A stretch of 6,699 nucleotides of DNA, from positions 1-6,699 of the IMG/VR virus record IMGVR_UViG_2671180417_000006; one strand, written 5' to 3'. Positions 4,201-4,751 of the stretch are shown here, one piece after another. The translations under genes were made by a program, and so were the position numbers. Positions within the stretch are counted from its first letter, which is position 1; the number at the start of each line of letters is the position of its first letter. The notes beneath the pieces are model-generated. The model saw only the letters and a list, made by a program, of their open reading frames with translations. It did not search any database and was not told where the DNA came from. Origin of the DNA: a virus. Its lineage: Duplodnaviria > Heunggongvirae > Uroviricota > Caudoviricetes.

Positions 4201-4751
4201 TGACGGCGAAAAATGCGGATATCAGTGGCAGTGTGAATGCGAACTCAGGAGCGCTCAACAATGTCACGATTAACCAGAACTGTACGATTAAGGGCATGCT
4301 GGAGGCGACCCAGGTCAGAGGGGATTTCGTTAAAGCTGTATCAAAAGCCTTCCCGAAAAAAGTCGGTACGTGGGGTAACACGGAAACACCAAACGGTACG
4401 GTTACAGTCACCATCAGCGATGATCATAACTTTGACCGCCAGATTATTATTCCGCCCATTATTTTTAACGGTATAGCGTATGACGATCCGGGGAGCGGAA
4501 ATAACCCAGGAGGCACGCGATACACGGGTTATGGTTTTGAAGTTCGCAAAAACGGCGTATTAATCGCATCCAGAGAAACTAAAGGGGCCATTCCCGGTAG
4601 TTACAGTGCAGTTATTGATATGCCTAGTGGTGGTGGTAGCGTCACTCTGGAGTTTAAGATTTTCCAGAAAGGCAATCAGGGGGCAGGCAATATCACCGAC
4701 TGTACGGTGATTGTGACCAAAAAAGCTGCTTCCGGCATCAGTATTCGTTGA
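1260..4751 (+). CDS. J: Tail tip central fibre / host specificity protein J (about 1163 aa)
   Basis: ATG at 1260 preceded by AAAGGGTGAG (Shine-Dalgarno-like) 4-12 nt upstream; stop TGA 4749-4751. [39 protein letters not shown]... matches the lambda gpJ N-terminus ([18 protein letters not shown]...) as recalled, with conservation along most of the length (e.g. [76 protein letters not shown]). The ORF track's 1218 start is an in-frame non-ATG start inside the upstream terminator and is unlikely. Confidence 0.92.

Follow-up and report, generated by a model that had tools for sequence, protein, structure and literature searches.

The receptor-binding domain of phage lambda gpJ is Ig-like, and its bottom loops L1 to L4 insert into LamB (Ge & Wang, PMC11101478). 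Binding of LamB spreads the three lambda domains and starts a rearrangement that opens the tail tip (PMC11101478). Lambda residue 1107 has been reported as a key specificity residue, and natural J homologs fall into lineages distinguished by indels at four hotspots (Maddamsetti et al., 2018, PMC6646904); in that study, natural-prophage variation was concentrated in lambda residues 960–1132, and the lineages carried no receptor assignment. Lambda that carries the J gene of phage 434 in place of its own J binds OmpC, the receptor of 434 (PMC11101478; PMC3509688), and the 434 central fibre is described as OmpC-targeting in a passage of PMC12502783 that cites Fuerst & Bingham (1978). The genomes of 434 and of the h434 hybrid were reported by Feiss et al. 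(PMC9119081; OL657226, OM418627). Phage 21 uses LamB, and a single J mutation confers OmpC use on it (PMC11336670). A8 and 1A2, two OmpC-binding gpJ chimeras, accept different OmpC variants (PMC11338833), and the complex of A8 gpJ with EDL933 OmpC has been solved (PDB 9wca/9wcb; PMC11338833), the 9wcb entry being described as 'A8 gpJ 713 ... with OmpC ... EDL933'. Gifsy-1 J is a further documented OmpC binder (PMC12312913).

The DNA analysed here (the window) is a stretch of 6,699 bp that represents the tail-tip module of a lambda-like Escherichia coli prophage. The gene order K-I-J-lom-stf is collinear with that of lambda and 434, as expected for a J protein of the lambda-type tail tip. The features of the window are as follows.

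19–447: 3′ part of K, C40/NlpC-P60 peptidase (Pfam NlpC/P60)
345–1025: I (Pfam Lambda_tail_I)
1260–4751, plus strand: J, tail tip attachment protein/central tail fibre, 1163 aa plus stop (ORF, Pfam and homology)
4074–4268, plus strand: conserved beta-prism/central straight fibre segment of J, aa 939–1003, upstream of the receptor domain
4269–4748, plus strand: 434-type receptor-binding domain of J, the diverged specificity region, aa 1004–1163 (identity, Pfam, Foldseek)
4073–6699, plus strand: 434-like block comprising the J 3′ end, the J terminator, lom and most of stf (blastn)
4774–4798, plus strand: terminator-like hairpin plus T-run directly 3′ of the J stop, GGCGTCAGGAATGACGCC TTTTTT (read from the sequence)
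4822–5421, plus strand: lom, Ail/Lom family outer-membrane beta-barrel, 199 aa (Pfam Ail_Lom, E = 2e-116)
5486–6699, plus strand: stf, side tail fibre, first 404 codons, leaving the window at its end (translation; collinear with the 434 stf CDS)

The mechanical ORF of J runs from a TTG at 1218 to 4751. Homology of the sequence beginning MGKG to lambda and 434 J supports the ATG at 1260 as the probable true start, giving a protein of 1163 aa, and the residue numbering of the original prediction agrees with this start. The order of Pfam domains in J (FNIII-A_GpJ, Phage-tail_3, Ig_J, Ig_J_second, Phage_Tail_Tip, Ig_GpJ_C) is that of lambda gpJ. J was aligned with lambda gpJ (NC_001416), lambda h434 imm21 J and phage 434 J (OL657226). 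The result showed that, over its full length, J is 66% identical to lambda J and 74.6% identical to 434 J. Against lambda gpJ, 712 of 1005 alignment columns were identical over aa 1–1003 (70.8%), and 61 of 166 over aa 1004–1163 (36.7%; nt 4269–4748), a significant drop (Fisher p = 1e-16). The break with lambda falls at about aa 1004 (nt 4269) at the protein level; at the DNA level, blastn gave 83.8% identity to lambda across 4073–4305 and then no similarity until 5342. These results bear out the original prediction that the last roughly 150 residues of J have diverged from lambda, and its placing of the start of the diverged region at 4300 was accurate to within a few bases. The C-terminus thus does not show high full-length identity to lambda gpJ, the finding that would have spoken against that prediction.

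The accompanying statement that J tracks lambda elsewhere holds for aa 1–1003 taken as a whole but needs qualifying for aa ~800–900, where identity is only 28–44% and 28 residues are extra. This second strongly diverged stretch (nt ~3660–3960) departs from lambda and 434 alike in 50-aa bins, and the extra residues lie within it, at aa ~834–861. It corresponds approximately in position to the alpha-helical shaft of lambda, which refolds upon receptor binding. Given the extra shaft residues, the fibre of the window phage is probably longer than that of lambda. With respect to the motifs that had been listed as retained in the C-terminus, DDHxFDRQI and V.V.KK.A.GIS are indeed common to both proteins, but VIDMP reads IVDMP in lambda, so that only the DMP core is shared.

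The diverged C-terminus was assigned to Pfam PF12421 (Ig_GpJ_C), defined as 'Tip attachment protein J, C-terminal receptor binding domain', with a score of 88.3 bits against a curated cut-off of 26.2. The match lies at the extreme C-terminus of J (core aa 1027–1162, nt 4338–4745) and covers profile positions 1–134 of 135, in keeping with the earlier proposal that the diverged region is the one that determines the receptor. A PDB sequence search with the domain returned A8 gpJ 713 (9wca/9wcb, E = 8e-58) as the top match, and also lambda gpJ (8xcj/8xck, 8iyk). The domain was also modelled with AlphaFold2 from a cleaned 13-sequence alignment from which chimeric and frameshifted fragments had been excluded. 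The 13 strands of the model make up an all-beta domain, with pLDDT values of 80–95 in the core and the Ig-like beta-sandwich of the solved gpJ receptor domains. The top four Foldseek hits were 8xck, 9wcb, 9wca and 8xcj, that is, gpJ structures throughout, with E ~1e-13, probability 1.00 and a TM score of 0.68, the score being normalised to a query in which ~35 residues are disordered. Sequence and model together indicate that the diverged tail of J shares family and fold with the lambda receptor-binding domain. Lambda gpJ (8xcj/8xck; PMC11101478; Foldseek E = 2e-13) has in common with J the framework motifs DDHxFDRQ, NG, DMPxGxG and KK..GIS as well as the upstream fibre segment; it differs in having a domain that is only 37% identical, in small indels and in using LamB.

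Comparison with J proteins of known receptor identified the 434/h434 allele. The last 160 aa of J were identical to those of phage 434 J (OL657226) at 156 of 160 positions (97.5%) without gaps, the four substitutions relative to 434 being N1045D, I1134V, Q1136H and G1141R, and identity to lambda h434 J was 94–100% per 50-aa bin. When the C-terminus was used in a translated search against the phage collection, the hits fell into two clearly separate groups, 74 records at 90–100% identity and 169 below 60%; 'Lambda h434 imm21' fell into the high-identity group, at 97%. The domain is thus nearly identical to the h434 allele and free of indels relative to it, and it falls outside the LamB-binding specificity class of lambda, from which it is separated both by its low identity and by indels at loops 1012, 1048, 1077 and 1107. 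On this sequence evidence, the last ~160 residues of J are an Ig-like beta-sandwich, namely the gpJ C-terminal receptor-binding domain in its phage-434 allele. The J tail is a classical, named and very common allele that was already known, and represents no novel divergence.

The similarity to phages 434 and h434 (OL657226, OM418627) extends to the neighbouring genes, which are lom and stf of the 434 type. The block 4073–6699 aligned with phage 434 (OL657226) in a single HSP with 95.2% identity over 2628 bp and 2 gaps. The J body (aa 1–~940), by contrast, matches that of 434 at only ~71% of protein and ~77% of DNA positions, and its helical shaft region carries 28 residues that 434 lacks. Across 1256–3750 the J body showed 77% DNA identity to either lambda or 434, and in the interval 3751–4072 blastn gave no DNA match in lambda or 434. 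By these comparisons, the receptor domain arrived together with 434-type lom and stf, as one 434-like block on a different J body, the two being joined within the conserved fibre segment that precedes the domain. The fibre segment at 4074–4268 is common to lambda, 434, 21 and A8; its aa 949–998 bin has 86–92% protein identity to both lambda and 434, and its DNA identity is 80–87% to lambda and 434 until about 4213 and 98–100% to 434 from about 4214. This segment is likely, judging from these identities, to be a homologous-recombination junction for receptor-domain swaps. In the alignment, lom showed 90–100% DNA identity to 434 lom and 30–60% to lambda lom, and is thus the 434 allele.

The occurrence of the domain was surveyed in 5426 complete E. 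coli genomes with a 501-bp query covering it. The result showed that the 434-type domain was present in 2114 of them (about 39%), with 529 records at ≥99% identity to the query, many of them identical. Nucleotide-identical (100%) domains were found in many E. coli prophages, including those of EHEC, O55 and O157 strains, and the phage records with an identical domain include ASU11, mEp460_ev081 and Stx2_EH2201. Among the lambdoid prophages of E. coli, the 434-type domain is a standard allele. For the whole window, the best matches were prophages of O157:H7, O55:H7 and other STEC strains, at up to 96–97%, followed by Stx-converting phages and phage ASU11 at 95–96%; no full-length match above ~97% was found among complete E. 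coli genomes or phage records. The window is a mosaic without an exact counterpart in the collections compared, though many of their records carry a receptor-domain segment with 100% identity to its own.

The domain differs from that of lambda chiefly by substitutions and by a small indel in each of four loops, at lambda positions ~1012 (+2), 1048–49 (+6), 1077–78 (+1) and ~1107 (+2/−6). These positions are the four indel hotspots described in PMC6646904, and the window fits the pattern of natural variation reported there. In the AlphaFold2 model the four indel loops (model residues 46–51, 87–94, 117–122 and 148–152) lie between strands. From the alternation of strands in the model, the four variable loops would lie at one end of the sandwich and the conserved DDHxFD, NG and DMPxGxG loops at the other, and by analogy with loops L1 to L4 of lambda we infer that the variable end is the distal, receptor-contacting one. 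Polymorphism within the 434 class, measured across 21 full-length members, clusters in or beside these variable loop areas (1030–1035, 1045, 1075–76 and 1134–1141) and also occurs at 1125 in a conserved loop. Residue 1141 is G, R or W and residue 1136 is Q or H within the class; 434 itself has R at 1141, and h434 has W. I1134V, Q1136H and G1141R map to the counterpart of the lambda 1107 loop or directly next to it.

Given the near-identity of the domain to the 434 allele and the genetics that link 434 to OmpC (PMC11101478, PMC3509688, PMC12502783), there is support for the suggestion of the original prediction that the receptor of this phage is not LamB. The receptor of the window J would most likely be OmpC, as transferred from the near-identical 434/h434 proteins. 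In the mechanism that we propose, the domain trimer at the tip of the central fibre would dock onto OmpC rather than LamB, with the four variable loops at its distal end entering the extracellular vestibule of this trimeric porin. Binding of OmpC would spread the three domains, as in the lambda–LamB and A8 gpJ–OmpC complexes, and the spreading would pass up the fibre, open the tail tip and lead to DNA ejection. Which OmpC alleles are recognised would probably be tuned by the four substitutions relative to 434. By analogy with two solved gpJ–porin complexes, the 434-type domain can be regarded as structurally understood. Taken as a whole, the explanation that a 434-allele domain sits in a 434-like block and has OmpC instead of LamB as its inferred target is considered highly probable.

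A8 gpJ offers a second OmpC-binding comparison. It has the same fold as the window domain, but the domains are only ~43% identical and belong to separate sequence classes. Since the A8 and 434 classes have diverged and both include OmpC binders, OmpC binding arose or was kept in at least two classes. Phage 21 J and A8 gpJ (9wca) share 80% identity in the receptor domain; the former uses LamB and the latter binds OmpC. Sequence class is thus no strict predictor of receptor in the gpJ family, in which a few residues can decide. As direct evidence for the receptor of the window J, the Brödel et al. chimeras (1A2 and A8) were considered and set aside, as they belong to different classes, with ends reading ...MKKATAGITIS and ...MKKSTAGISIS. 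Gifsy-1 J was likewise discarded as an informative comparison because its C-terminus is unrelated (11–19% identity). Literature searches for receptor data on mEp460, ASU11, Stx2_EH2201 and ev081, whose domains are 95–100% identical to that of the window, returned nothing usable, and no publication describing the ECOR prophages (PhiR.. records) was found.

The probability that does not fall to OmpC as described lies mostly with a change in the allele range or in the porin recognised. A 434-type domain might have shifted to a different porin, such as OmpF or LamB, or to a limited set of OmpC alleles, for example the EHEC-type over the K-12 protein. Of the four differences from 434, three are grouped around the hairpin equivalent to lambda 1107, few mutations are enough to change the receptor of lambda or phage 21 (PMC6646904, PMC11336670), and the two OmpC-binding chimeras differ in the OmpC variants that they accept (PMC11338833), all of which would favour such a shift. 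Positions 1141 and 1136 are polymorphic within the class, which would also fit, but 434 and h434 differ at 1141 and are nevertheless both reported OmpC users. Moreover, the domain is 97.5% identical to that of 434 without indels, and the window allele is the commonest E. coli form, with 100% matches in many genomes and phages, which suggests ordinary drift among alleles of a single functional class. A shift in specificity is thus considered unlikely. It is also doubtful, and slightly more so, that the exact allele shared by EHEC, O55 and O157 strains marks a distinct sub-specificity, for particular OmpC alleles or an extra porin, with the J domain, lom and stf perhaps travelling as a co-adapted host-range cassette. 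For the idea that the domain binds LamB in a different manner, no support was found.

Many EHEC-type lambdoid prophages are defective, and the window J might accordingly be an intact gene in a defective prophage, its domain having no current role in adsorption and its sequence reflecting decay. The finding that no complete E. coli genome exceeds about 97% over the whole window is consistent with a mosaic history. However, K, I, J, lom and stf all have open frames collinear with phage 434, the 3.5 kb of J contain no frameshift or stop, and the same domain is carried by the phage records ASU11, mEp460_ev081 and Stx2_EH2201, so that a relic is very improbable. The 434-allele reading, with OmpC as the probable receptor, is thus preferred. 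On this reading, the receptor of the prophage central fibre can be annotated as most likely OmpC, not LamB. The value of this is practical only: it bears on the prediction of strain reach, including that of Stx-phage relatives with the same tip, and on the choice of gpJ modules for engineered lambda delivery particles. The genetics of the 434 host-range allele have been known since the 1970s and the allele had already been sequenced, so that no new question is opened.

Several further observations were made on the non-coding parts of the window. The spacer between I and J (1026–1259) is 234 nt long, compared to 60 nt in lambda and 434, and its sequence had no match in either phage. It contains two hairpins, at about 1040–1066 and 1198–1222, the second being followed by a T-run. 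About 1400 complete E. coli genomes contain similar sequence, with no annotated feature at that place. A search of the whole window against Rfam at a permissive threshold gave nothing credible, and no hit in this spacer either. A consensus scan called the hairpin at 4774–4798 on the minus strand only; the counterpart position in phage 434 carries a terminator annotation. In the gap between lom and stf, a strong terminator-like hairpin, AGCCCGCC..GGCGGGCT, followed by a T-run, lies at 5448–5476, also an annotated terminator position in phage 434.

The stf gene is of the 434 type, with a lambda-like N-terminal domain followed by an Ala/Ser/Glu-rich region and collagen-like Gly-X-Y repeats; the Gly-X-Y stretch comprises ~115 residues (about aa 250–365). 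The long spurious opposite-strand ORFs at 5709–6571 are due to the repetitive nature of the stf coding sequence.
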